This document shows positions 4,316 to 52,001 of a stretch of DNA of 64,000 bases, in pieces. The notes beneath the pieces were generated by a model. That model saw only the letters and a program-made list of their open reading frames with translations, did not search any database and was not told the origin of the DNA. The translations under genes and the position numbers were made by a program. This stretch comes from an uncultured Trueperaceae bacterium (GTDB lineage: Bacteria > Deinococcota > Deinococci > Deinococcales > Trueperaceae): the NCBI GenBank assembly GCA_963727505.1, contig CAVSGP010000004.1, positions 608,001-672,000 on the forward strand. The letters run 5' to 3'. Numbering within the stretch: the stretch's first letter is position 1; every line of letters begins with the position of its first letter.

Positions 4316-5116
4316 TCAGTCCTCCTCGGCCTCGGGTAGGAACATCCCGATGGCGTGGTAGCCGGCGTCGACGTAAACGGTCTCCCCCGTGACGCCACCG
4401 CCCAGCTCGTCGCACAGCAGCGACAGGCTGAGACCAGCGACCTCGCTGCCCTCGATGTTGCGGGCGAGCATGCTGCGGGCCCCGGCCTCGGAGTACATCT
4501 CACCGAACCCGCGGATGGACCGAGCCGCGACCGTCCGCACCGGTCCCGCGGAGATGGCGTTCACGCGGATGCCCTTCGGCCCCAGGTCGTAAGCCAGGTA
4601 ACGCATGCTGGCCTCGAGCGCCGCCTTGGCAACGCCCATCACGTTGTAGTGCGGCACCACGCGCTCGGCAGCGAGGTAACTCAGCGTCACCATGCTCCCG
4701 CCGCCCTTCATCAACCTGGCGGCCCGGTTCGCCACGGCCACGAGGGAGTAGGCCGAAACGTCGAGCGCGGTGCTCCAATCCTCCCGACGGGTGTTGACGA
4801 AGGGCCGCTCGAAGGTGACGGGCGGCGCGAAGGCCAGGGCGTGCACCACGTAGTCGAGGTGCCCCATCTCGGAAGCGAGGGTGTCGAAGAGGCCGTCGAG
4901 TTGCTCGTCGCTGGTCACGTCGCACTCCGCCAGCACCGTTCCCTCGAGATCCGCGGTGAGCTTCTCCAGGGTGGGCCGCAGCCGCTCCCCCTGGTAACTG
5001 AACGCGAGACGAGCGCCGGCCTCCGCCAGCGGCTGCGCGATGGCCCACGCCAGCGAGCGCTGGTTGGTGACTCCCATGACCAAGCCGTTCTTTCCGGTCA
5101 GATCGATGCCGAACAT
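4316..5116 (-). CDS. fabI: Enoyl-ACP reductase FabI
   Basis: GVTNQRSLAW, YNVMGVAKAALE and NAISAGPVRT motifs; ATG at 5116 after a GGAGGGAG RBS. Confidence 0.95.
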   Translation of the reverse strand: MFGIDLTGKNGLVMGVTNQRSLAWAIAQPLAEAGARLAFSYQGERLRPTLEKLTADLEGTVLAECDVTSDEQLDGLFDTLASEMGHLDYVVHALAFAPPVTFERPFVNTRREDWSTALDVSAYSLVAVANRAARLMKGGGSMVTLSYLAAERVVPHYNVMGVAKAALEASMRYLAYDLGPKGIRVNAISAGPVRTVAARSIRGFGEMYSEAGARSMLARNIEGSEVAGLSLSLLCDELGGGVTGETVYVDAGYHAIGMFLPEAEED

Positions 5117-8787: not shown

Positions 8788-9511
8788 GCCCACGGTTCCC
8801 CGACCCACGGCGCTGGTGACGGGCTCGGCGCGCGGCATCGGTCGGGCGCTGATCCTGGCGCTGGCCAAATCGGGTCACGACGTCGCCGTCCACTACCGCA
8901 ACAGCGCCGCCGAGGCCGCCGAGGCCGCCGAGGAAGCGCGCTCGTTCGGGGCGCGGGCCGTTGCGCTGCAAGCCGACGTCACGATCGAAGCGGAGGCGCG
9001 CGCCCTCGTCGAGACCGCCCGCAGCGAGCTGGGACGCCTCGACGTGCTCGTGAACAATGTCGGCGACTACCACTTCGGTCCGCTCGACGAGCTCGACGCG
9101 CAGCGCTGGCATGCCATGTTCGACAGCAACCTGCACGCCACCTTCTACACATGCCAGACGGCGGTGCCGATCCTGCGCGCACAGGGCGGCGGGCGCATCG
9201 TGAACATCGGCTATGCCGGCGCCGAACTCGTCAAGGCCCGACCGTCGATCGTGGCCTACGCCGCCGCCAAGACCGGCGTCATCCTCTACAGCAAGGCGCT
9301 CGCCAGGAGCGAGGCCGCCCACGGCATCACCGTCAACGTGGTGAGTCCTGGAGTGATGGAGAACAGCGTCACCCAGCCAACCGGCGAGGTGCCGATGGGT
9401 CGCGCAGGCAGGTTCGAGGAGCTGGTGGCGGCGGTCCGTTACCTGCTCTCGGCCGAGGCCGCCTACGTCACCGGCGCGACCATCGAGGTGGCCGGCGGCT
9501 GGAACCTGTGA
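8780..9511 (+). CDS. tmpR: SDR; TmpR-type dihydropteridine/dihydrofolate reductase
   Basis: TGSARGIG, NNVGDY, YAAAKTGVILY and a C-terminal EVAGGWNL, as recalled for the Thermus enzyme. Confidence 0.75.
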   Translation: MLEPTVPRPTALVTGSARGIGRALILALAKSGHDVAVHYRNSAAEAAEAAEEARSFGARAVALQADVTIEAEARALVETARSELGRLDVLVNNVGDYHFGPLDELDAQRWHAMFDSNLHATFYTCQTAVPILRAQGGGRIVNIGYAGAELVKARPSIVAYAAAKTGVILYSKALARSEAAHGITVNVVSPGVMENSVTQPTGEVPMGRAGRFEELVAAVRYLLSAEAAYVTGATIEVAGGWNL

Positions 9512-9517
9512 CGTGCG

Positions 9518-10114
9518 CTAGAGGTCGTCCTCTTCGAAGCGGAGGCTGCCCCTGGCGTGGTCGCCGGTACCGTGACTGACGTCGAACACGCCCCCCGCCT
9601 GCTTCAGGTTGATCGTCACGAAGTCGTGGTGCTGCAGGACCTCGAACGCTTCCAGGGGCGCGTCCCGACGCGGGAGGAGCACGCGCGCGCCGTGGAGATC
9701 CTGGAAGGGCCGGTCGGTGAACACCGTGTGGAGATAATCCGACACCCGCTGTTCGGGCATCAGGTAGAGCCGCCCGGTGAGCACGTAGCTGGCGTACATC
9801 ACGTAGACCAGGCGCGCCTCGCGGCGAACGTGCTCGCTCGGCTCCTCGGCGTGGCCCCCCACCACCCACATGATGTGCTCCTTGGGCACAGCGGCGAAGT
9901 CGGTCTCGTACTGCAGCGCGTTGTTCGCCGGCGGATGGCGGAAGCCCGCGTCGTAGACCATGCAACGCGTCACGGGCAGGTATGGACGATCGGTGAGGTT
10001 GAGGAGGCGGGCGGTGCTCACGATCTCCGGTAGATGAAGGAGGCCATAGAGGCGGAACTCGTTGGTGTAGACCCGTCCTTCGGTCGGCGTGACGCGACGT
10101 CCGTTGACGACCAT
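9518..10114 (-). CDS. Hypothetical protein made of two tandem similar ~85-aa domains (DUF6812-like)
   Basis: Repeated L.G.L.L.....TDRP(Y/F) pattern; TAGCGT-N5-ATG. Confidence 0.6.
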   Translation of the reverse strand: MVVNGRRVTPTEGRVYTNEFRLYGLLHLPEIVSTARLLNLTDRPYLPVTRCMVYDAGFRHPPANNALQYETDFAAVPKEHIMWVVGGHAEEPSEHVRREARLVYVMYASYVLTGRLYLMPEQRVSDYLHTVFTDRPFQDLHGARVLLPRRDAPLEAFEVLQHHDFVTINLKQAGGVFDVSHGTGDHARGSLRFEEDDL

Positions 10115-10199
10115 GCAGGACGCTACCACGTGCGTCCTGGCCGCCCCCGGGGCGAGCACCCGAGAGCACCCGCGCCCTCCGCGACGCTATGCTGGCCCC

Positions 10200-12833
10200 A
10201 TGGCCCGGGACGACGAGGGCGGCGGGGAACAGCGCGGCCGCAGCGCGGCGCAGGACAGCATGTTCGCGGCCCCGGGCGCGGAAGCCGGCCCGACCTTGCG
10301 CAACGACGTTGGCGGGGCGGGAGCCGCCGGGTCCGGCGTTCCCGCTCCCGGCGAGCGGGTCGTGGTCATCGATGGGCACGGCCTCGCCTACCGCAGCTAC
10401 TTCGGCGTGGGCGATCTCTCCACGTCCAGGGGGCAACCGACGCAGGCTATCTACGGCTTCCTGCGGACGCTGCTCGCTCTGCTCAGGGAGGGCGACGCCG
10501 TCGTGGTCGTCACCTTCGATGCCCCCGCCCCCACCTTCCGGCACGAGCGCTTCGAGGATTACAAGGCGGGACGCGCGCCCACACCGGAGGATCTGCCCTC
10601 GCAGATCGCCGTGATCAAGCACCTCCTCGACCTGATGGGGGTTCCCAGGCAGGAGGTTCCCGGGCTCGAGGCCGACGACCTCATCGGCACCATCGCCGTG
10701 CGCTGCGCCGCGCAGGGCTACCGGGTCGAAGTAATCACCAGCGATCGCGACGCCCTGCAGCTCGTCAGCGAGCGCGTGCGGGTGCGCAGCCCGGATCGCC
10801 CCGACGCGCTGGGGGCCGAGCAGGTGGAGGCGCGCTACGGCGTAACGCCCGCTCAGTGGGTCGACTATCGCGCGCTCACCGGCGACAGCAGCGACAACCT
10901 GCCGGGCGTACGAGGGATCGGCCCGGTGGCCGCGCGCACGCTGCTGCAACGCTACGGATCGCTCGACCGCGTCCTCGCGGACCTCGACGCCGTCGAACCC
11001 GCCTCCTACGCCCGCAAGATCGCGGCCGATCGCGACGCTCTGACGCTGTCGCGCGAGCTCTCCCGCATCCGCACCGACGTCGACATGGCGGTGGACCCCG
11101 AGGCCTGGGCGCGCCGCGTACCGGACCGAGAAGCGCTCACCGCGCTGTTGCGAGAGCTGGAGTTCGGCTCCGTGCTCCACGAGCTCGGCCTGGAGCAACG
11201 GACCGAGTACCGCAGCGTCACGTGGGAGGAGCTGGCGCCCGACGGAGCGATCGGATTCGTGCTGGACGGCGAACGCGCCACCTCGGCGCGGGTCCTCGAG
11301 CTGGCGCTCGCCCGCGGGGGCCGCGTGGCATGCGCCGCCGACCGGGCCGAGCGCGCCGAGGCGCTGGGGCGCTCGACGCCTCTGGATGCCTGCGACGCCA
11401 AGGCGCTGACGGTGGCGACCCGGCGGCAAGGGCTCCCGGCGAGACCCGGCGACGATCCGCTGCTCATGGCCTACCTGCTGGACCCGAGCGGAGCCTCCCC
11501 CGAGCGCCTGGCGCGCCGCCACGGCGCGGGCACCTGGGGGGCCGACGCCCGCAGTCGCGCCGTGACCACCGCCGAGCTGCTGCGCATCCTGGGCCCGCGC
11601 CTGGAGGGCGACCAGCGCACCGTCTACGACGAGCTGGAGCGCCCCCTCCAGGCCGTGCTGGCGGAGATGGAGCTCGCCGGCGTGCGTCTCGACGTGGGTC
11701 GCCTGCGGCGCCAGTCCGAAGCGCTGGCCGAGCGCATCGAACGCATCGAAGGGCGCATCCGGACGCTGGCCGAGCAACCCGACTTCAACGTGAACTCCCG
11801 CGACCAGGTCGCCTGGCTGCTCTACGGGAAGCTGGGTCTGCGCGCGGGCCGACGCACCGCCACCGGCAAGCGCAGCACGGCGCTCTCGGCGCTCGAGCCG
11901 TTGCAGGGCGAGCACGAGGCCGTCGATCTGATCCTCGAACACCGGGAGCTCAGCAAGCTCAAGAGCACCTACCTCGACCCCCTGCCGGAGCTCGTCGACC
12001 CCGTCACCGGCCGGCTCCACACCACCTTCAACCAGGCCGTGGTGGCGACGGGGCGCCTCTCCTCGACCCACCCCAACCTCCAGAACATCCCGGTCCGCAG
12101 CGAGCTCGGCCGCGAGATCCGACGCGCCTTCATCGCCGCCGAGGGGGCGCGGATCCTGGTCGCGGACTACAGCCAGATCGAGCTGCGGGTGCTGGCCCAT
12201 ATCGCCGATGAACCCGTCCTGATCGACGCTTTCAACCGCGGCGAGGACGTCCACCGGCGGACGGCAGCGGAGGTGTACGGCGTCGACGCGCCGCAGGTCA
12301 GCGCCGAGATGCGCAGGCGCGCGAAGGTCGTGAACTTCGGCATCCTCTACGGCATGGGGCCGCGCCGTCTCAGCACCGATCTGGACATAAGCCTGCGGGA
12401 AGCGGAACGTACCATCACCACCTACTTCGAGCGCTACCCACGGGTACGCGCCTACATCGACGCCACCCTGGACTACTGTCGCGAGCACGGGTACGTCACC
12501 ACGCTGCTGGGCCGGCGTCGCATGATCCCCGACATCCACAGCCCGAACCGAAGCGCCCGCGAGTACGCCGAACGCACCGCGTACAACATGCCCATCCAGG
12601 GAACGGCGGCAGACATCATGAAGCGGGCGATGCTGAACCTGGCGCCGGCGTTGCAGTCGCTAGGTGGTCGCCTGCTGCTGCAGGTCCATGACGAGATCGT
12701 GGCGGAGGTCCCGGTCGACGCCGCCGCGGCCGCCGTCGCGGCCGTGCGCGAGGCGATGGCGGCCGCTGCCAGCTTGCGGGTCCCGCTAGTGGCCGAGGTG
12801 GGTGTGGGACCCAACTGGCTGGAGGCGAAGTAG
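10200..12833 (+). CDS. polA: DNA polymerase I (Taq-like)
   Basis: 5'-nuclease IDGH and EADD; TGRLSS..PNLQNIP, DYSQIELR and QVHDE; TATGCT-N6-ATG. Confidence 0.97.
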   Translation: MARDDEGGGEQRGRSAAQDSMFAAPGAEAGPTLRNDVGGAGAAGSGVPAPGERVVVIDGHGLAYRSYFGVGDLSTSRGQPTQAIYGFLRTLLALLREGDAVVVVTFDAPAPTFRHERFEDYKAGRAPTPEDLPSQIAVIKHLLDLMGVPRQEVPGLEADDLIGTIAVRCAAQGYRVEVITSDRDALQLVSERVRVRSPDRPDALGAEQVEARYGVTPAQWVDYRALTGDSSDNLPGVRGIGPVAARTLLQRYGSLDRVLADLDAVEPASYARKIAADRDALTLSRELSRIRTDVDMAVDPEAWARRVPDREALTALLRELEFGSVLHELGLEQRTEYRSVTWEELAPDGAIGFVLDGERATSARVLELALARGGRVACAADRAERAEALGRSTPLDACDAKALTVATRRQGLPARPGDDPLLMAYLLDPSGASPERLARRHGAGTWGADARSRAVTTAELLRILGPRLEGDQRTVYDELERPLQAVLAEMELAGVRLDVGRLRRQSEALAERIERIEGRIRTLAEQPDFNVNSRDQVAWLLYGKLGLRAGRRTATGKRSTALSALEPLQGEHEAVDLILEHRELSKLKSTYLDPLPELVDPVTGRLHTTFNQAVVATGRLSSTHPNLQNIPVRSELGREIRRAFIAAEGARILVADYSQIELRVLAHIADEPVLIDAFNRGEDVHRRTAAEVYGVDAPQVSAEMRRRAKVVNFGILYGMGPRRLSTDLDISLREAERTITTYFERYPRVRAYIDATLDYCREHGYVTTLLGRRRMIPDIHSPNRSAREYAERTAYNMPIQGTAADIMKRAMLNLAPALQSLGGRLLLQVHDEIVAEVPVDAAAAAVAAVREAMAAAASLRVPLVAEVGVGPNWLEAK

Positions 12834-15621: not shown

Positions 15622-16230
15622 ATGATCGATATCACGCGCGAGCTCTCCGAGGGACACCCAGTGTGGCCGGGCGACAGCGCCTTCCGCCTCGAGCAGGTCA
15701 GCAGCATCGACGAGGGGAGCGCCGTCAACGTCATGCGCCTGAGCACCACCACCCACCTGGGCACGCACCTCGACGCGCCCTGGCACTACGCGCGCACCGG
15801 CGCCACGCTCGTTGCGGTCGGGCTCGAGACCCTGGTGGGCGAGGCGCTGGTGATCGACGCGCGCGGCGAGGGCGAGGTACGGGCCAGCGTGCTGCCAGAC
15901 GCGCCGCTGCCCCCACGGGTGCTCCTGCGGACCGGGCAGCCCGAGCGCTGGGAGGGGTTCCCGACCTTCCGGCCGCTGCTCCCTGAGCTCATCGAAGCGC
16001 TCGGACGGAAGGGCGTTCGCCTGCTCGGCACGGACGCGCCCAGCGTCGACGCGCTGGACAGCAAGGATTTGCCCGCGCACCAGGCGTGCTTCCGGAACGA
16101 CATCGCCATCGTGGAGGGGTTGGAGCTCAGCCGCGTGGAGCCGGGCCGCTACCGACTCATCTGCCTGCCGCTGCGCATGCCGCACGCCGACGCCTCTCCC
16201 GTAAGGGCGGTGCTCGAGCCGCTCGTCTGA
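15622..16230 (+). CDS. kynB: Cyclase family / kynurenine formamidase-like
   Basis: HLGTHLDAPWH, GTDAPSVD, IVEGL and DASPVRA motifs. Confidence 0.75.
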   Translation: MIDITRELSEGHPVWPGDSAFRLEQVSSIDEGSAVNVMRLSTTTHLGTHLDAPWHYARTGATLVAVGLETLVGEALVIDARGEGEVRASVLPDAPLPPRVLLRTGQPERWEGFPTFRPLLPELIEALGRKGVRLLGTDAPSVDALDSKDLPAHQACFRNDIAIVEGLELSRVEPGRYRLICLPLRMPHADASPVRAVLEPLV

Positions 16231-16244
16231 CGCCCGGCACGACA

Positions 16245-16278
16245 GCGCGGGCGGGCACCCGGAGGCGCCCGCCCGCGC
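16245..16278. terminator. 12-bp GC stem-loop between convergent genes
   Basis: gcgcgggcgggc / gcccgcccgcgc inverted repeat; no U-tract. Confidence 0.5.
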
Positions 16279-16319
16279 TCGATCCGCGCCGCATCAGCGG
16301 CGACGGACGTGTCGGAAGA

Positions 16320-16829
16320 TCAGCGCACGACGAGATAACCCGCCATGTAGCCGTCCTGGCTCGGGCCGTCGAAGCCCTTGCTCATGCCCCAGTGGGTCGG
16401 GCCGTCGCACGGGAGGGCGCAGTACCAGCGGTAGTAGCCGACCTTGGCGGGCGCAGTGAAGGTGAAGGTGGTCTTGCCGGGCGTGAAGCCGGTCTCCTTG
16501 CCGCTAGCGTCCTTGGTGAAGGTTCCGCCCTTGGCGACGAGGTTCATGTTGATCTCGGGGGCCGTGATGCTGTGGTCGCCGTCATCGTAGTTGATGACGG
16601 TCAGAGTGACCTGCTGGCCGGGTTCCACGACCATGTCCGAGGGCATGAACGCGTCGTGGTTGGTGCCGTCGGGGCCGGGCTTGCCGAGCACGCCTGCCAC
16701 GCTGTTGCTGTGCATGATGACCATGGTCAGGCTCACGGGGGCCGGCGTGCTCGCCGCCAGTGCCGGCATCAACGCCATGAGGCCGAAGGTCGCTGCGATC
16801 AGGACTGCACCCTTGCGAACGCTATGCAT
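16320..16829 (-). CDS. Secreted cupredoxin with a CuA-like motif
   Basis: Signal peptide; V.PGQQVTLTVIN.D...HS; GYYRWYCALPCDGPTHWGM; GAGGAG RBS. Confidence 0.8.
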   Translation of the reverse strand: MHSVRKGAVLIAATFGLMALMPALAASTPAPVSLTMVIMHSNSVAGVLGKPGPDGTNHDAFMPSDMVVEPGQQVTLTVINYDDGDHSITAPEINMNLVAKGGTFTKDASGKETGFTPGKTTFTFTAPAKVGYYRWYCALPCDGPTHWGMSKGFDGPSQDGYMAGYLVVR

Positions 16830-17030
16830 GATGGACTCTCCTCTTCTGAACTCGCTTCGGAGTTCGCGGTGGCCGCGCTCGGCCAACGAGCGCCATGGTC
16901 GCTCCGACATCTCTCCGCCGAACAGGGACATTCGCCCCGTTCAGGACATATGTCCCGAGTTGCGTTCGGCCTGCCTTGGCGGCCGGAGGGCGCTCATGGC
17001 TCACACCTTGCCGGCGGTAGTCTGACCCCC

Positions 17031-17741
17031 GTGAACGGCACGCGTACCTGGCGCTATCTGTCGCTCGGCGGGGCGGTGGGGCTGCTCTGCGGCCTCGCGC
17101 TGTTCCTCTGGCCCGGCCCCGTTGCGAGGGTGGCGGGGGCTCCCGCACCGCTGCCGAAGCTCTTCCGAGCGCCGAGCTACGCGCTGACGGACCAGCTCGA
17201 CCGGAAGGTGCAATCCCGCGACTTCCTCGGCAAAGTGCGCATCGTCGTGACCATGGACCCGTACTGCACCACACTCTGCCCGCTCACGGCCTCGAAGGTG
17301 CTGAACCTGGAGCAGGTCCTGAAGCGCCGTCACCTGACCCGGGACGTGCAGATCGTGGCTTTCGACATCGACAAGGCAACGGGCCCCAAGGATCTGCGTG
17401 CGTTCCTCGACCAGGAGGGCGTGAATCCCGACGCGCACTGGCTGGCCTACCTCACCGGGCCCGCCAGGACCGTCCGAAGCGTGGTCCACGACGGCTACCA
17501 CAGCAGCTACTCCAGCGTGAGCAACGCGCAGGCCGAGAAGCTCGCCCCCAGCGCGTTCCAGGCGCGCATGAGCAATCCGGTGGCCGAGCAGGCGAGCGCA
17601 CCGTTCGCGGTCATGCACCAGAGCCCGCTGTTCGTCGTCGATCGCAAGGGCTGGGTGCGGGCCGCCTTCGGCGACGCCAGCACGACGCCGACCGCGGAGA
17701 TCGCGGGGGACGTGGCGCGGCTGGCGGGGACCGGCGGATGA
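17031..17741 (+). CDS. SCO family copper chaperone (CxxxC and His present)
   Basis: N-terminal TM; LTDQ..R, CTTLCP and VMHQSPLFVVDRKG; TAGTCT-N7-GTG. Confidence 0.85.
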   Translation: MNGTRTWRYLSLGGAVGLLCGLALFLWPGPVARVAGAPAPLPKLFRAPSYALTDQLDRKVQSRDFLGKVRIVVTMDPYCTTLCPLTASKVLNLEQVLKRRHLTRDVQIVAFDIDKATGPKDLRAFLDQEGVNPDAHWLAYLTGPARTVRSVVHDGYHSSYSSVSNAQAEKLAPSAFQARMSNPVAEQASAPFAVMHQSPLFVVDRKGWVRAAFGDASTTPTAEIAGDVARLAGTGG

Positions 17742-18526
17742 GCCCCGCTCCGCGCCCCTCCCGCCCCACCCGCGCGGCGCAGATCGCGGTCGGCCTGCTC
17801 GTGGGGTTGGCGCTGGCGTTCGCGGGGAGCGAGCTCTACCACAGCGCGTCGAGCCCGGCCGCGATCGCTGCCAGCCAGGCGGAGCATGGCTACGCCGTCC
17901 GCGACCTCGGCGCGGCTCCGAGCCTGCGGGGCTTCACCGACCAGCAGGGGCAGCCGTTCGACCCCAAGACCTTGCAGGGCAAGGTCCAGGTGGTCAGCTT
18001 CCTCGATCCTCGCGGCACACGCATCAGTCCCGTGATCGGCGTCAACCTCCTGATGGCGGTAAAGAACGATCTGAAGGCCACCGGAAGGTTCGGGAAGGAC
18101 GTCGTGTTCGTTTCGTTGAACGTCGACCCGCAGGCCAGCAACCCGGCGACCACCGCGAGCTTCCTGAAGCGCGTGGTCGGGTACGGGAAGGTCCCGGCCC
18201 CGGCGGCCCAGTGGCCGTTCTTGAGCGGCTCGGCCACCCGTGTCGCGCAGGTCGTGCGCGACGGCTACGGGGTGCCATACCGGCGCCTCGGCGGGGCAGC
18301 GCTGCGAAACGCCACCACGCAGCAGAAGGCCCAGGGCACGTACTTCTACGCCAGCGCCTGGAACCCCCTGGCCGAGAACGACCTGCCGACGGTGATCGGG
18401 AACGCGACCCTCGTCATCGTCGGGCCCCACGGGCGCATGCGAGCCCGCATCCCGCGCGCCTACCAGGTGTCGAGCGTGGCCGTCGAGCAGACGATCGACG
18501 CTGTGCTGGCGAAGAGCGGCCACTGA
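17738..18526 (+). CDS. SCO family paralogue lacking Cys and His ligands
   Basis: FTDQQGQPF..LQGKV, GTRISP in place of CxxxCP, VSLNVDP, and GNATLVIVGPHG; no Cys in the protein; ATGA overlap. Confidence 0.75.
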   Translation: MSPAPRPSRPTRAAQIAVGLLVGLALAFAGSELYHSASSPAAIAASQAEHGYAVRDLGAAPSLRGFTDQQGQPFDPKTLQGKVQVVSFLDPRGTRISPVIGVNLLMAVKNDLKATGRFGKDVVFVSLNVDPQASNPATTASFLKRVVGYGKVPAPAAQWPFLSGSATRVAQVVRDGYGVPYRRLGGAALRNATTQQKAQGTYFYASAWNPLAENDLPTVIGNATLVIVGPHGRMRARIPRAYQVSSVAVEQTIDAVLAKSGH

Positions 18527-18567
18527 CGCCGGGGATCACCCCCGCGGCGCACCCGGTAGCGCACCCG

Positions 18568-19182
18568 TCACCCTTCCATCCCCGTGGCTCGGGCCCTCAG
18601 CCGCGCGGCCAGCGCCTCGGCGAGATCCTGCGCCTGCGGATCGTCGCTGGCGCCGATGGCCACGAGGACCGTCCCGTCCGCTCTAGGGACCAGCGTCACG
18701 GTCACACGGGCCGTGTTCGTGCGGCAACGGTAATCGGCGAACCGGAACGGCACGTAGCCGCAGGTCCTGTAGCTCATCTCGGCCGACACGAAGGCACTGC
18801 TCGGATCGGCCTGCGTGATGATCCAGCCACCCATCGTCGCCGGGTACGGCTGCGTATCGATGGTGGCGACCGTGGCCGCGTAGGCGTCCGGAAGCGTGAG
18901 CGGCGTGATGGTCTGTCGGGGCTTGACGATCGCGGGAGCACAGCCGGAGAGCAGGATCAGGAGGATCGCGGCGCCCAGCCACATCCCCGTCCGTGCGGAG
19001 CTCCGCCGCGACCGGCCGCGTCGGACCGGGCCGCTTCGAACCGGCCCGATTCGGACCGGGCCGCCTCGCATCGAGTTGCGCTTCCTCGCGATCCGCTTGA
19101 TCGAGGGCCGTCTGATCGAGGGCCGTCTGATCGAGGTCCCCATGATCGAGGTCCCCTTCCCGTCGCTCGCTTGCCCTTCCAT
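18568..19182 (-). CDS. Putative lipoprotein with a basic pentapeptide-repeat N-terminus (start uncertain)
   Basis: Lipobox LLSGC after a hydrophobic stretch. Confidence 0.6.
   Translation of the reverse strand: MEGQASDGKGTSIMGTSIRRPSIRRPSIKRIARKRNSMRGGPVRIGPVRSGPVRRGRSRRSSARTGMWLGAAILLILLSGCAPAIVKPRQTITPLTLPDAYAATVATIDTQPYPATMGGWIITQADPSSAFVSAEMSYRTCGYVPFRFADYRCRTNTARVTVTLVPRADGTVLVAIGASDDPQAQDLAEALAARLRARATGMEG
19021..19157. repeat. Two blocks of 15-bp tandem repeats
   Basis: tgatcgagg(g/t)cc... x4 at 19098-19157; tcg(g/a)accgg(g/c)ccg.. x3 at 19021-19065. Confidence 0.8.
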
Positions 19183-19954: not shown

Positions 19955-20031
<77 letters not shown>

Positions 20032-20056
20032 GCGCGTCGTGAACGCGGGAGCTGCT

Positions 20057-20149
20057 TGGCGGAGAGGGAGGGATTCGAACCCTCGATGGAGGTTTTGCCC
20101 CCATACTCCCTTAGCAGGGGAGCGCCTTCAGCCGCTCGGCCACCTCTCC
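20057..20149 (-). tRNA. tRNA-Ser(GCT)
   Basis: GGAGAGGTGGCCGAG..., anticodon loop CT-GCT-AA, long variable arm, encoded CCA. Confidence 0.96.
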
Positions 20150-20172
20150 CGATTGTGCTCCGACCGGACTCT

Positions 20173-20262
20173 TGGCGGAGGGTGAGGGATTCGAACCCCC
20201 GGACGGGTCGCCCCGTCAACGGTTTTCAAGACCGCCGCTTTCAACCACTCAGCCAACCCTCC
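20173..20262 (-). tRNA. tRNA-Ser(TGA)
   Basis: GGAGGGTTGGCTGAG..., anticodon loop CT-TGA-AA, long variable arm, encoded CCA. Confidence 0.96.
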
Positions 20263-21292: not shown

Positions 21293-21877
21293 ATGAACCG
21301 CCGGTTCTTCTCCAAGCGCCCCGACGACGAGCGCCTGCCGCCGGGGCAGAGCCTCGTCAGGGGCTTCCCGGTACTGACCTACGGGCCCACCCCGCGCCTC
21401 GCCAGGCAGGAACTGAAGCTCACCGTCAGCGGCCTGGCGAAGGCTCGCACGTTCGGTTGGGACGAACTCATGGCGCTTCCGCAGACCGACGTTCGCCGCG
21501 ACTTCCACTGCGTCACCCGGTGGTCGAAGTACGACGTGGGGTGGACGGGCGTACTCACGCGCGACCTGATGGAGCAGCTGGAGGTCGACGGCGCGGCCAC
21601 CCACGTGATGCTGCGCTGCTACGGCGGCTACAGCACCAACCTCGGCCTGGAGGACTTCCTGGCCGACGGCTGCCTCCTCGCCCACCGCCTCGAGGGCGAG
21701 GATCTCGCCGTCGAACACGGTGGACCTCTTCGCGCCATCGTCCCCCACCTGTACGCCTGGAAGAGCGCCAAGTGGCTCTCCGAACTGCACTTCATGGACC
21801 AGAACGTACCCGGCTTCTGGGAACGCAACGGCTACCACACGCGGGGCGACCCGTTCGCGGAGGAGCGCTTCAGCTGA
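21293..21877 (+). CDS. Sulfite oxidase-like molybdopterin oxidoreductase
   Basis: RLPPGQ, DFHCVT.WS, HGGPLR and WKSAKW..GFWE motifs. Confidence 0.9.
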   Translation: MNRRFFSKRPDDERLPPGQSLVRGFPVLTYGPTPRLARQELKLTVSGLAKARTFGWDELMALPQTDVRRDFHCVTRWSKYDVGWTGVLTRDLMEQLEVDGAATHVMLRCYGGYSTNLGLEDFLADGCLLAHRLEGEDLAVEHGGPLRAIVPHLYAWKSAKWLSELHFMDQNVPGFWERNGYHTRGDPFAEERFS

Positions 21878-51131: not shown

Positions 51132-52001
51132 TCAGCGGCGGAAGGTGACGGTCGCCCGCACCCCCTGCCAGGTGACGGTGATCGGCCGGTAGAGGTCGAA
51201 CCAGGGTGGGAGGAGCAGGACCGCGGCCGCCGGGGCATCGGGGCCGACACGCGTGCTCGAGCCCTGCACCATGCGCATGCGGTAGGGGTAGCGGATCGGC
51301 AGGCTACGGCCATCCTGCTCCAGCACGAAGGTCGCGTCCCACGTGCTCGGCGCCAGCGACGACACCAGCACCAGCAGGGGTTTGTCGCTCCCGATGCGCT
51401 CCAGAGCCCCGTCGATGGCGTCCCGCTGCGAAGGCCGCACCAGCGGCAGCAGATCGAGGTCGGCGACCAGGACCGCGACCCCGTCGCCCCCCGTGGCGTC
51501 CGCCGCGAACAGGCGAAGCCCCGGGACGCCGTGGCCGAGATCGTCGACCTCGCTGCGGCCGCCGCTCCCCGCCACCGCTGGCGACGGCACCGCCAGCGCC
51601 ACCGTGCGCCCGCCGGGGAGGACGAGGCGTTCTCCCTCCAGTCGGATGCCGAGCGTATCGAGCGCGTCCGTAGGCAGGTACCAGGTCCCGTCGCGAAGCA
51701 GCGCCGGGGCGGACAGGCTGAGGGTGCTGGAGCTCGTGGCGCCCGCGGCCTGCCACAGCGCGTCGGGCGACCCCGCGAAGACGGTGAGCGTGCCCGCCAC
51801 GGCGCGCCACGTCAGGCTGCCCTCGCCGGTCACCAGGATGTCTCCGAGGGCCCGCGCCACGGGCGCCGCCGGCGTGTAGAGCGTCCCCGCCACGCGGACG
51901 GCCGCCACAGGGTCGGCCGCCACGGGGTCGGCGCGCGCGACGCCGAGCGCCGCGCCGGCCACCAGCGCCAGAACGAGGAGAGCGAGCCGGGTCGGGCCCA
52001 C
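51132..52001 (-). CDS. Hypothetical exported protein
   Basis: Signal peptide (ARA-D); TAGGCT-N7-GTG. Confidence 0.6.
   Translation of the reverse strand: MGPTRLALLVLALVAGAALGVARADPVAADPVAAVRVAGTLYTPAAPVARALGDILVTGEGSLTWRAVAGTLTVFAGSPDALWQAAGATSSSTLSLSAPALLRDGTWYLPTDALDTLGIRLEGERLVLPGGRTVALAVPSPAVAGSGGRSEVDDLGHGVPGLRLFAADATGGDGVAVLVADLDLLPLVRPSQRDAIDGALERIGSDKPLLVLVSSLAPSTWDATFVLEQDGRSLPIRYPYRMRMVQGSSTRVGPDAPAAAVLLLPPWFDLYRPITVTWQGVRATVTFRR

Follow-up and report, generated by a model that had tools for sequence, protein, structure and literature searches.

Does a small, soluble cupredoxin that is encoded beside two SCO genes carry a natural CuA-like copper centre? To our knowledge, natural CuA occurs only in oxidase subunit II and its relatives, in N2O reductase and in the PmoD dimer, and soluble CuA proteins have otherwise been obtained only by engineering. 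The window (the whole stretch of Trueperaceae DNA that was analysed, 64 kb) encodes such a cupredoxin, whose features are as follows.

16320..16829, minus strand: cupredoxin gene, 169 amino acids (open reading frame, start with ribosome binding site, homologues, AlphaFold2 model, Foldseek)
Residues 1 to about 26 of the cupredoxin: signal peptide
16656..16658, minus strand: codon of H58 (H-D motif), proposed stand-in for the absent loop His ligand
16572..16574, minus strand: codon of H86 (N-x-D-x3-H), the upstream cupredoxin/CuA His
16344..16421, minus strand: ligand loop, residues 137-162, with C137-x3-C141-D142, H146-W-G-M149 and G-Y-M162

The open reading frame spans 16320-16931 on the minus strand, and its likely start is the ATG at 16829, with AGAGGAGAG just 5' of it. 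Read by eye, the N-terminus has the shape of a Sec-type signal (a basic n-region, a hydrophobic core and A-L-A/A-S), and the mature part carries D-G-D-H-S, which includes H86, C-A-L-P-C-D-G-P-T-H-W-G-M (residues 137-149) and G-Y-M (residues 160-162). The contrast between GC3 (0.88) and GC2 (0.51), 26 homologues with E values down to 1e-102 and an AlphaFold2 model of strands only with a mean pLDDT of 88.2 mark it as a real gene. Hence, the secreted 169-residue cupredoxin of the preliminary description, with DGDHS, C-x3-C-x4-H-x2-M and GYM, is indeed present, and it is free-standing as claimed there, being a single protein and not a domain of an oxidase or N2O reductase. The same description saw no oxidase or nos gene in the window, and a Pfam scan of 87 window ORFs (6 + 56 + 25) agrees: none belongs to the COX1, COX2 or N2O-reductase families across the 64 kb, the ORFs having been picked by GC3 and length, so that a very short or atypical gene could escape.

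The protein has the Greek-key beta-sandwich fold of the cupredoxin superfamily, as seen in the AlphaFold2 model and by Foldseek, which returned 275 PDB matches at E ≤ 1e-3; among the matches listed, all are cupredoxin domains, with nitrosocyanin at the top and a Bacillus anthracis Cupredoxin_1 protein, an engineered CyoA-CuA, the CuA domain of a ba3 oxidase and N2O reductase also present. Its only Pfam match is Cupredoxin_1 (PF13473), at 21.7 bits and an E value of 2e-4, below the cutoff of 27, which many of its homologues pass (27 to 40 bits); Pfam COX2 and Copper-bind gave no match to it. A candidate match to the C-terminal part of the NCBIfam clade III lactonase-type N2O reductase was discarded as too weak (E value 0.019, 13.5 bits against a cutoff of 700).

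The family comprises 1078 representative clusters at E ≤ 1e-3 and is spread over the Actinomycetota, the Deinococcota and other phyla, with two copies in several metagenome-assembled genomes (MAGs). No characterised member was found: the nearest clusters in the protein atlas are named "hypothetical protein" or Cupredoxin_1 and sulfocyanin-like, none of them with an experimental name, and full-text searching, with subscription-only papers outside its reach, yielded no paper on the family. Only cupredoxin domains were detected by Pfam in 22 longer or tandem relatives when these were searched for fusion partners. With the single sequence as query (phmmer), the best PDB match is plastocyanin, whose His and Cys ligands align with H86 and C137 and whose strand 1-2 loop aligns with H58-D59; the corresponding loop of blue copper proteins is packed onto their C-terminal His ligand. 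H86 and C137 fall at the places usual in the superfamily, an N-terminal His ligand on an inner strand and a Cys that ends the penultimate strand. With the family profile, the best PDB match is the type 1 cupredoxin domain of NirK (1e-8), and the CuA domains of N2O reductase follow at 1e-5. In the latter alignment, N-x-D...H falls on N-L-D...T-H-G and W-Y-C-x-x-P-C on Y-Y-C-Q-W-F-C, so that H86, C137 and C141 coincide with the His and the two bridging Cys of CuA, which upholds the CuA likeness noted earlier. Furthermore, the near relatives P0139 and P0157 carry the canonical C-x3-C-x3-H-x2-M loop. Judged from these alignments, the family branches beside the CuA domains.

Which residues are kept was read from an alignment of 191 domains from 175 proteins, in which most of the remainder at each position are gaps. 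H58 is present in 169 domains, H86 in 186, C137 in 180, C141 in 179, D142 in 175, M149 in 170 and M162 in 172. The family signature reads G-P-D-G-x2-H-D ... N-x-D-x3-H ... W-x-C-x2-P-C-D-(1 to ~10)-[WFY]-[AS]-M-(variable)-G-[YF]-M-x-G, with two His, two Cys, two Met and one Asp near-invariant; a conserved Pro precedes C141, and the two Cys have the spacing of CuA. The motif C-x3-C-x4-H-x2-M, earlier taken for a CuA variant, stands as to its Cys pair, both of which (the second one included) are kept in about 99% of the aligned domains, and falls as to its His. Indeed, a His at the position of H146 is found in only 19 of the 191 domains, 87 of 171 ligand loops have no His at all, and on this alignment H146 of the window protein is a clade-specific extra. 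The loop from C141 to M162 varies in length between 10 and 37 residues.

A second near-invariant His (H58, in the H-D motif) and a second near-invariant Met (M162) had both been missed by the earlier reading. Their conservation keeps the dicopper reading alive in an altered form. In the four domains of relatives with the canonical CuA loop, H58 is replaced by Tyr, which suggests that the gain of H58 goes with the loss of the fixed loop His.

Divergent from the cupredoxin gene stand two coupled genes.

17031..17741, plus strand: SCO-A, membrane-anchored, with C-T-T-L-C-P and a conserved His (Pfam SCO1-SenC; alternative start ATG 16950)
17738..18526, plus strand: SCO-B, membrane-anchored paralogue with the SCO fold, lacking both Cys and the His (Pfam; coupled to SCO-A)

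The two overlap in the ATGA at 17738-17741, and both match Pfam SCO1-SenC (37.0 and 23.7 bits for SCO-A and SCO-B, cutoff 22.8), in line with the coupled, divergent SCO genes first described. The start of SCO-A is most likely GTG 17031, giving 236 residues, and not ATG 16950, since most of its 29 homologues have 236 residues and since, unlike the ATG, the GTG is present at every one of the five orthologous loci. The "SCO pair" of the preliminary description is, however, only half intact. SCO-A has the SCO1/SenC hallmark, C-x3-C-P and a distal His; its Cys, Cys and His align with those of 4hde and 1xzo, and among its homologues (29 sequences) C79 and C83 are invariant and H196 is at least 90% conserved. 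SCO-B, which is 29% identical to SCO-A, lacks the hallmark and has G and S in place of the Cys pair and G in place of the His. Five SCO-B orthologues show the same losses; C-x3-C is absent from 21 of 21 homologues, and 20 of the 21 are free of Cys. Judging by these residues, SCO-B cannot bind copper in the manner of an SCO protein and must act otherwise; we know of no described SCO-like form that lacks all three ligands. Both proteins form narrow clades (29 and 21 proteins, respectively), and for several members the longest contig has the same length as for a cupredoxin hit (703022, 2947 and 69901 are examples). A complex prediction with the soluble domain of SCO-A (residues 40-236) and the mature cupredoxin (residues 27-169), each with its own alignment, was run twice without controls; the ipSAE was 0.01 each time (mark 0.32), which speaks neither for nor against an interaction.

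The cupredoxin and SCO-A genes are separated by a control region of 201 bp with conserved palindromes.

16848..16865, no strand: inverted repeat GAACTC-N6-GAGTTC just upstream of the cupredoxin ribosome binding site, a 5'-UTR hairpin or operator
16925..16955, no strand: two adjacent palindromes, GGGACA-N2-TG-CCC-like and GGACATATGTCC, a candidate regulator site between the divergent genes

The inverted repeat is kept in the window and in five orthologous loci, with one mismatch each in L002 and L007 and with both arms changed together in L004 (GAACTC/GAGTTC to GAGCTC/GAGCTC); it is absent upstream of the copies without SCO in L005 and L006. The double palindrome is conserved in L001-L004 and L007 and also precedes the cupredoxin genes of L005 and L006, which have no SCO nearby. 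The weight of the palindromes comes from this conservation and not from their number, as the pattern occurs once in the window against 2.14 times expected from shuffles, which is no enrichment. A scan with a consensus promoter found no sigma-70-like site in 16100-18800. In the Trueperaceae, the cupredoxin is probably co-regulated with the intact SCO.

Is the link to SCO genes a property of the family? A search with an alignment of 18 of 27 sequences as the query gave 37 related loci, of which 10 have copper-related genes near the cupredoxin homologue. The following neighbours were recorded.

L001-L004 and L007: SCO pair
L006: rusticyanin-like protein
L008: coxB-coxA-CusF/SCO operon, with a CusF-SCO fusion
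L020: CtaA
L032: Cu-ATPase with a cytochrome c
L033: CopC/CopD

In a six-frame HMM search, an SCO gene lies near the cupredoxin in 6 of the 37 loci, and none lies within about 7 kb in the other 31; the count rests on this search, since a Pfam scan of 249 chosen ORFs from 32 loci had detected no SCO and had missed the one of L008. The six are five close Deinococcales relatives and L008, whose SCO belongs to the coxB-coxA operon. Contrary to what the preliminary description would lead one to expect, homologues are thus mostly not linked to SCO genes, and the linkage is lineage-specific; copies with and without SCO can even sit in one MAG (L003 and L005). The divergent arrangement and the palindromes are kept in the five orthologous loci down to a cupredoxin identity of 78%. 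On the opposite flank, too, these loci have genes in common (cyclase, phosphoesterase and glmM), and their synteny may reflect mere relatedness. No conserved redox partner was found, as no neighbour family occurs in more than 5 or 6 of the 37 loci, and when 291 selected ORFs of these loci were clustered by BLAST, distant loci proved to share only regulators and an SQR-like flavoprotein. In L006, the cupredoxin gene, with the double palindrome upstream of it, is divergent from genes for an OmpR-type response regulator and a HAMP-HisKA kinase. An assignment of the adjacent two-component systems as copper sensors was rejected: they reach 185.6 and 196.1 bits with the NCBIfam heavy-metal subfamily models (cutoffs 279 and 293) and score higher with the generic PhoB, MtrA and WalK models.

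Taken together, the observed fold, the homology to N2O reductase, the conservation of the ligands, the relatives with a canonical loop, the copper genes nearby and the intact SCO-A lead us to propose, tentatively and at somewhat less than even chances, that the protein is a periplasmic copper protein with a thiolate-bridged, CuA-like centre, possibly serviced by SCO-A in the Trueperaceae. Since two His, two Cys and two Met are kept throughout, the family may hold a new natural version of the CuA site. In our model, the cupredoxin would be exported by Sec to the periplasm, where two copper ions would be bridged by C137 and C141, with their CuA spacing, and capped by H86 and H58 as terminal ligands, M149 and M162 binding weakly in the axial positions. 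Compared to CuA, the second His would come from the strand 1-2 loop (H58) and not from the ligand loop, and a second Met would take the place of the backbone carbonyl. We infer that such a centre would serve electron transfer and that, in the Trueperaceae, SCO-A may supply copper, maintain C137 and C141 in the reduced state, or both, just as SCO proteins serve oxidase subunit II. A precedent for a non-canonical natural CuA is PmoD, with a Cx7MxH motif at its homodimer interface (PMC6189053). Against the CuA-like reading, two Cys, two His and two Met would equally fit a mononuclear site with spare residues or a Cu(I) buffer, a variation of the loop between 10 and 37 residues is unusual for a rigid electron-transfer site, and there is neither a recurring redox partner nor an SCO gene in most of the loci nor a Cupredoxin_1 score above the cutoff.

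In a mononuclear copper electron carrier, the site would be type 1-like, green or red, with H86, C137 and either one or two further ligands from among H58, M149 and M162. C141 would then lie in the second sphere, serve as a fifth ligand or pair up in a redox-switch disulfide. This reading is favoured by plastocyanin, the NirK type 1 domain and nitrosocyanin as the best matches to the single sequence, the profile and the model, respectively; nitrosocyanin has a mononuclear Cys/His2/Glu site, and the near-invariant D142 could play the part of its carboxylate ligand. However, C141 is as conserved as C137, has the spacing of CuA and follows a conserved Pro, Copper-bind gives no match to the window protein, and we know of no single-copper cupredoxin that keeps two Cys in its ligand loop; we regard a mononuclear site as rather unlikely. 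A similarly low probability is given to a periplasmic Cu(I) buffer, chaperone or resistance protein, whose thiolates and thioethers would bind one or two Cu(I) for sequestration or hand-over, the cupredoxin and SCO genes together being a copper-stress regulon. CupA is a chaperone with a cupredoxin fold, and CupA, CopI and CusF would be the analogues. The Met/Cys-rich ligand set, the variable and probably flexible loop and the two copies in several MAGs are consistent with a buffer, as are the CopC/CopD, Cu-ATPase and CusF-SCO fusion genes near homologues and the double palindrome beside the regulator and kinase of L006; a divergent regulator/kinase pair beside such a gene is typical of metal-responsive two-component systems. 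Furthermore, a copper-tolerance operon of Myxococcus xanthus, curA, includes a gene for a Cupredoxin_1 protein (PMC3707914). On the other hand, the two-component systems fall below the heavy-metal cutoffs and resemble PhoB and WalK more closely, copper-resistance genes are absent from most neighbourhoods, and two strictly conserved His in a rigid beta-sandwich, with CuA as the closest homology, fit a redox cofactor better. Finally, the protein might bind no metal at all and be a cupredoxin-like scaffold in which C137 and C141 are joined in a disulfide, whether structural or catalytic. Crystals of PmoD, in which two conserved Cys form an intramolecular disulfide (PMC6189053), are a precedent, and the window protein is under the Pfam cutoff. 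Nevertheless, near-invariant His and Met pairs alongside the Cys are the hallmark of a copper site, and H86, C137 and C141 fall on true CuA ligands, which makes a protein without metal highly improbable.

Whether the SCO genes are "dedicated assembly factors", as the preliminary description had it, is contested by a further explanation that leaves the nature of the cupredoxin untouched: they may be ordinary cytochrome-oxidase assembly factors that stand beside the cupredoxin by chance. As aerobes, the Trueperaceae require an assembly factor for CuA, most homologues have no SCO nearby, the SCO of L008 is clearly part of an oxidase operon, and the shared genes on the other side of the five loci point to plain synteny. 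Yet the head-to-head order and the palindromic control region persist as the cupredoxins diverge, SCO-A and SCO-B belong to narrow clades, and the window holds no detected oxidase gene. A chance neighbourhood is a serious possibility, but we consider it less than probable.

In its boldest form, the CuA-like reading would add the family to oxidase/N2O-reductase CuA and PmoD as the third way in which nature arrives at a CuA-type dicopper site: a soluble, purple His2-Cys2-Met2 carrier with its own SCO pair in the Trueperaceae. It would comprise a symmetric ligand set with one His from the N-terminal H-D motif, a loop of variable length, a single-domain protein free in the periplasm and a partner with the SCO fold but without its ligands that has taken on a new role, and in full we hold it to be doubtful. 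If true, it would provide a small, soluble and natural scaffold for bioinorganic study of what tunes CuA, a simple substrate for how SCO proteins build thiolate-bridged copper sites, and a hitherto unrecognised periplasmic electron carrier or copper handler in soil Actinomycetota and Deinococcota. SCO-B is a separate puzzle, an SCO fold put to use outside copper or thiol chemistry. If the cupredoxin were mononuclear or merely Cu(I)-buffering, it would be an ordinary addition to the cupredoxin catalogue.

Several known systems resemble this locus in part. Cupredoxin_1 (EfeO-type and B. anthracis 4hcf proteins) is a broad catch-all model that misses the H-D / C-x2-P-C-D / W-A-M / G-Y-M signature of the family. 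Type 1 blue copper proteins (plastocyanin, the N-terminal cupredoxin of NirK) and nitrosocyanin have their His and Cys where the family has H86 and C137; they use one Cys and a loop His, whereas the family combines a Cys pair with a Met pair and lacks a fixed loop His; the type 1 loop pattern, C-x(2-4)-H-x(2-4)-M with only one Cys, is not found in the family. PmoD/AmoD are likewise secreted cupredoxins outside oxidases with an unconventional set of Cys, Met and His; they form a CuA-type centre, as the present family may do. In PmoD, however, each monomer contributes a single Cys close to its N-terminus (Cx7MxH) and dimerisation is obligatory, whereas both Cys of the family lie in the C-terminal loop, the canonical place; no sequence relationship to PmoD and no pmo/amo context at the window locus were detected. 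The PmoD motif Cx7MxHxnC, as given in PMC6189053, is absent from the window protein.

SCO proteins are known CuA assembly factors (PMC6669012). SCO-A resembles SCO1/SenC in fold, membrane anchor, C-x3-C-P and His, but belongs to a divergent clade, and SCO-B keeps the fold alone. With the CuA domains of N2O reductase and oxidase subunit II, the family has in common the cupredoxin fold, the upstream N/D-x-D...H, C-x3-C, a Met followed by x-G and the last strand, and relatives with the exact CuA loop. In contrast to them, the window protein is stand-alone and soluble and not part of an enzyme, and its second Cys is followed by x4-H-x2-M in place of the canonical x3-H-x2-M, in a family without a fixed loop His. 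To the CuA plan the family adds H58, an Asp after the second Cys, a second near-invariant Met and a ligand loop of variable length.

Our analysis confirms the gene arrangement given in the preliminary description, a secreted cupredoxin divergent from two coupled SCO genes with no oxidase or nos gene in the window, since the ORF calls place the genes in this way, both plus-strand genes match Pfam SCO1-SenC (37.0 and 23.7 bits; cutoff, 22.8), and none of the COX1, COX2, and N2O-reductase families turned up when 87 ORFs of the window were scanned with Pfam. Genes that Pfam did identify include polA, glmM, a DEAD-box helicase, rpsT, and a thiolase. Features of the window (G+C, ~70%) are as follows:

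10071-12833, plus strand: DNA polymerase I with a Taq-type inactive exonuclease domain (Pfam Taq-exonuc, 4.5e-29), consistent with Deinococcus-Thermus origin
16320-16931, minus strand: cupredoxin ORF as called; most likely start ATG 16829, after AGAGGAGAG, giving 169 aa with a Sec-type signal (judged by eye)
16848-16865: inverted repeat GAACTC-N6-GAGTTC, directly before the cupredoxin ribosome binding site
16925-16955: two adjacent palindromes between the divergent genes
17031-17741, plus strand: SCO-A
17738-18526, plus strand: SCO-B, overlapping SCO-A by ATGA
18568-18996, minus strand: small predicted lipoprotein with an L-S-G-C lipobox and no Pfam family, convergent with SCO-B
19955-20262, minus strand: tRNA cluster Arg(ACG)-Ser(GCT)-Ser(TGA)
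21293-21877, plus strand: 194-aa protein consisting of a molybdopterin-binding oxidoreductase domain alone (Pfam Oxidored_molyb, 7.5e-37), short compared with sulfite-oxidase-family enzymes
51489-51581, minus strand: single tRNA-Val(GAC)

The predicted cupredoxin fold is secure, because the AlphaFold2 model has a pLDDT of 88.2 and the Foldseek matches listed from the PDB are cupredoxins throughout, including nitrosocyanin, a B. anthracis Cupredoxin_1 protein, CyoA with an engineered CuA site, the ba3 CuA domain, NirK, and N2O reductase. Pfam returned Cupredoxin_1 only, with a score under the cutoff; plastocyanin was a weak single-sequence match (E = 1.6e-3), its ligand His and Cys being aligned with H86 and C137, and a word-indexed search yielded 26 homologues. 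In the full profile search, the number of representative clusters was 1,078 at E ≤ 1e-3 and fell to 323 at 1e-10 and to 90 at 1e-30; the matches take in tandem two-domain forms (family members P0027 to P0032) as well as two proteins with the textbook C-x3-C-x3-H-x2-M loop (P0139 and P0157). Another protein, P0121 (1,166 aa), has nine Cupredoxin_1/Copper-bind repeats without C-x3-C and is possibly a multi-cupredoxin electron wire. Against the PDB, the family profile reaches the CuA domains of N2O reductase at E 1e-5, with its N-x-D...H on the CuA His and its C-x2-P-C on both bridging Cys, and, at 1e-8, the N-terminal type 1 domain of the three-domain NirK. The family is thus a neighbor of the CuA domains. 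The window protein is very probably a copper-binding cupredoxin of the CuA lineage.

When the query was aligned to the family HMM together with 174 retrieved proteins, 191 domains resulted, in which the residues of the window protein recur as follows: H58 in 169, D59 in 173, N80 in 180, D82 in 175, H86 in 186, W135 in 170, C137 in 180, P140 in 149, C141 in 179, D142 in 175, W147 in 148, M149 in 170, M162 in 172, and G164 in 173; almost all nonmatching domains are gaps from shortened sequences. Thus, in the proposed CuA-variant motif C-x3-C-x4-H-x2-M, the second Cys is conserved like the first, but the loop His is not: the position of H146 (P-T-H-W-G-M) holds His in just 19 of the 191 domains. 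Where C141 and M162 are both aligned (171 domains; loop length, 10 to 37 residues), 87 loops have no His at all, and among the 84 with at least one, it lies four residues before M162 in 51 (short-loop forms) and at the window protein's position in 14. The motif is therefore a clade feature, and what stays constant in the family is H58 and H86, the two Cys, a single Asp, and two Met. H58 may be the source of the imidazole that the ligand loop no longer gives, because Tyr-Asp replaces His58-Asp59 in all four domains having the canonical CuA loop and because H58-D59 falls, in the plastocyanin alignment, on the strand 1-2 loop, which in blue copper proteins packs on the C-terminal His ligand. We tentatively propose a thiolate-bridged dicopper center in which H58 and H86 would be the terminal and M149 and M162 the axial ligands, and give this somewhat less than an even chance; a mononuclear redox site is unlikely, and so is a role as Cu(I) buffer or chaperone.

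SCO-A has C-T-T-L-C-P and a distal His, aligned on the copper ligands of the solved SCO proteins 4hde and 1xzo; in its family (29 sequences), neither Cys varies, and conservation of the His is 90% or more. It probably starts at GTG 17031, because most homologues have 236 aa and five orthologous loci retain this GTG; the alternative ATG 16950 is not retained there and sits within a palindrome. The notion of an SCO pair holds for two coupled SCO-family genes but not for two copper sites: SCO-B (29% identity to SCO-A) has Gly and Ser for the two Cys and Gly for the His, five orthologues have the same replacements, and of its 21 database homologues, all lack C-x3-C and 20 are Cys-free altogether. 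Because it is otherwise well conserved, SCO-B is predicted to be a functional protein of SCO fold that cannot bind copper in the way SCO proteins do. It is a membrane protein and in this clade invariably coupled to an intact SCO.

The expected co-conservation with SCO pairs was not borne out, and the cupredoxin-SCO link is not general. Neighborhoods were sampled at 37 cupredoxin-bearing loci from a genome-collection scan (by record title: Actinomycetota, 21; Deinococcota, 5; the remainder Alphaproteobacteria, WPS-2, Chloroflexota, and others). With the SCO-A family HMM run against all six-frame ORFs of ≥60 aa, an SCO was present within ~7 kb at just six (L001 to L004, L007, and L008); phmmer gave the same loci except L008, which it missed. 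L001 to L004 and L007 are close relatives (cupredoxin identity of at least 78%; 96% between the window protein and that of L001, from an uncultured Trueperaceae MAG) that also share far-side genes, and their synteny, which in L002 and L007 is that of the five Deinococcota loci, therefore has little independent weight. One MAG has an SCO-linked (L003) and an SCO-less (L005) cupredoxin copy; three more MAGs have two copies each. At L008, the SCO lies ~1.9 kb from the family cupredoxin and is an unusual chaperone fusion, CusF-SCO (Pfam CusF_Ec plus SCO1-SenC); it terminates a coxB-coxA operon (9228-12450, minus strand) and hence belongs to the oxidase. This case, the many loci without SCO, and the close kinship of the linked ones speak for a serious, if rather doubtful, alternative: both SCO proteins would work for the oxidase of the cell and only happen to adjoin the cupredoxin. 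That SCO-A would reduce or metallate the cupredoxin in Trueperaceae is plausible, although we stop short of calling it probable.

Of the two palindromes between the divergent genes, one is GGGACA-N2-TGTCCC-like and the other, GGACATATGTCC, is exact. Both are conserved in five orthologous loci and recur ~100 bases upstream of SCO-less cupredoxin copies (L005, about 4996-5032; L006, 6832-6866); because they precede these copies too, we assign the element to the cupredoxin gene. As a candidate operator it lies upstream of Deinococcales cupredoxin genes, with or without SCO neighbors, and its place in the window lineage would let it govern the SCO operon too. The inverted repeat before the ribosome binding site may form a hairpin in the 5' UTR or serve as another operator; in L004 both arms change together to GAGCTC, and L002 and L007 have one mismatched position each.

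Two-component systems (OmpR-type or GAF-HisKA_3/LuxR-type) lie near homologues at ~8 of the 37 loci, and LysR regulators at 4. The system divergent from the L006 cupredoxin received no metal-responsive assignment when typed. GAF-HisKA_3 kinases and LuxR-type response regulators adjoin homologues at L016 (4405-5910), L026 (3375-6571), and L028 (4581-6597), an architecture that we take to resemble DosS/DosR; at L026, the homologue directly follows the regulator in the same orientation, a hint of control by redox state or hypoxia. Copper-related genes occur near homologues at L006, L008, L020, L032, and L033. In four Solirubrobacterales/Chloroflexota loci, an SQR-like flavoprotein adjoins the homologue (best NCBIfam match, type III sulfide:quinone reductase, 4e-49, under cutoff), in three accompanied by a conserved protein of 218 aa that fits no known family:

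L021, 4876-6693
L027, 4851-6675
L029, 7394-9205
L025, 8137-9279

This pattern of neighbors fits a copper protein and names no fixed partner.

Our literature search found no description of the family, and its nearest protein atlas clusters are named 'hypothetical protein'. If the dicopper reading holds, the protein is of real interest for copper biochemists; if not, it is routine. Membership in canonical CuA was rejected, since the window protein lacks the defining loop spacing and does not form a domain of any enzyme. It also differs from type 1 sites, whose single-Cys pattern it does not have, and from PmoD, whose motif it does not share.
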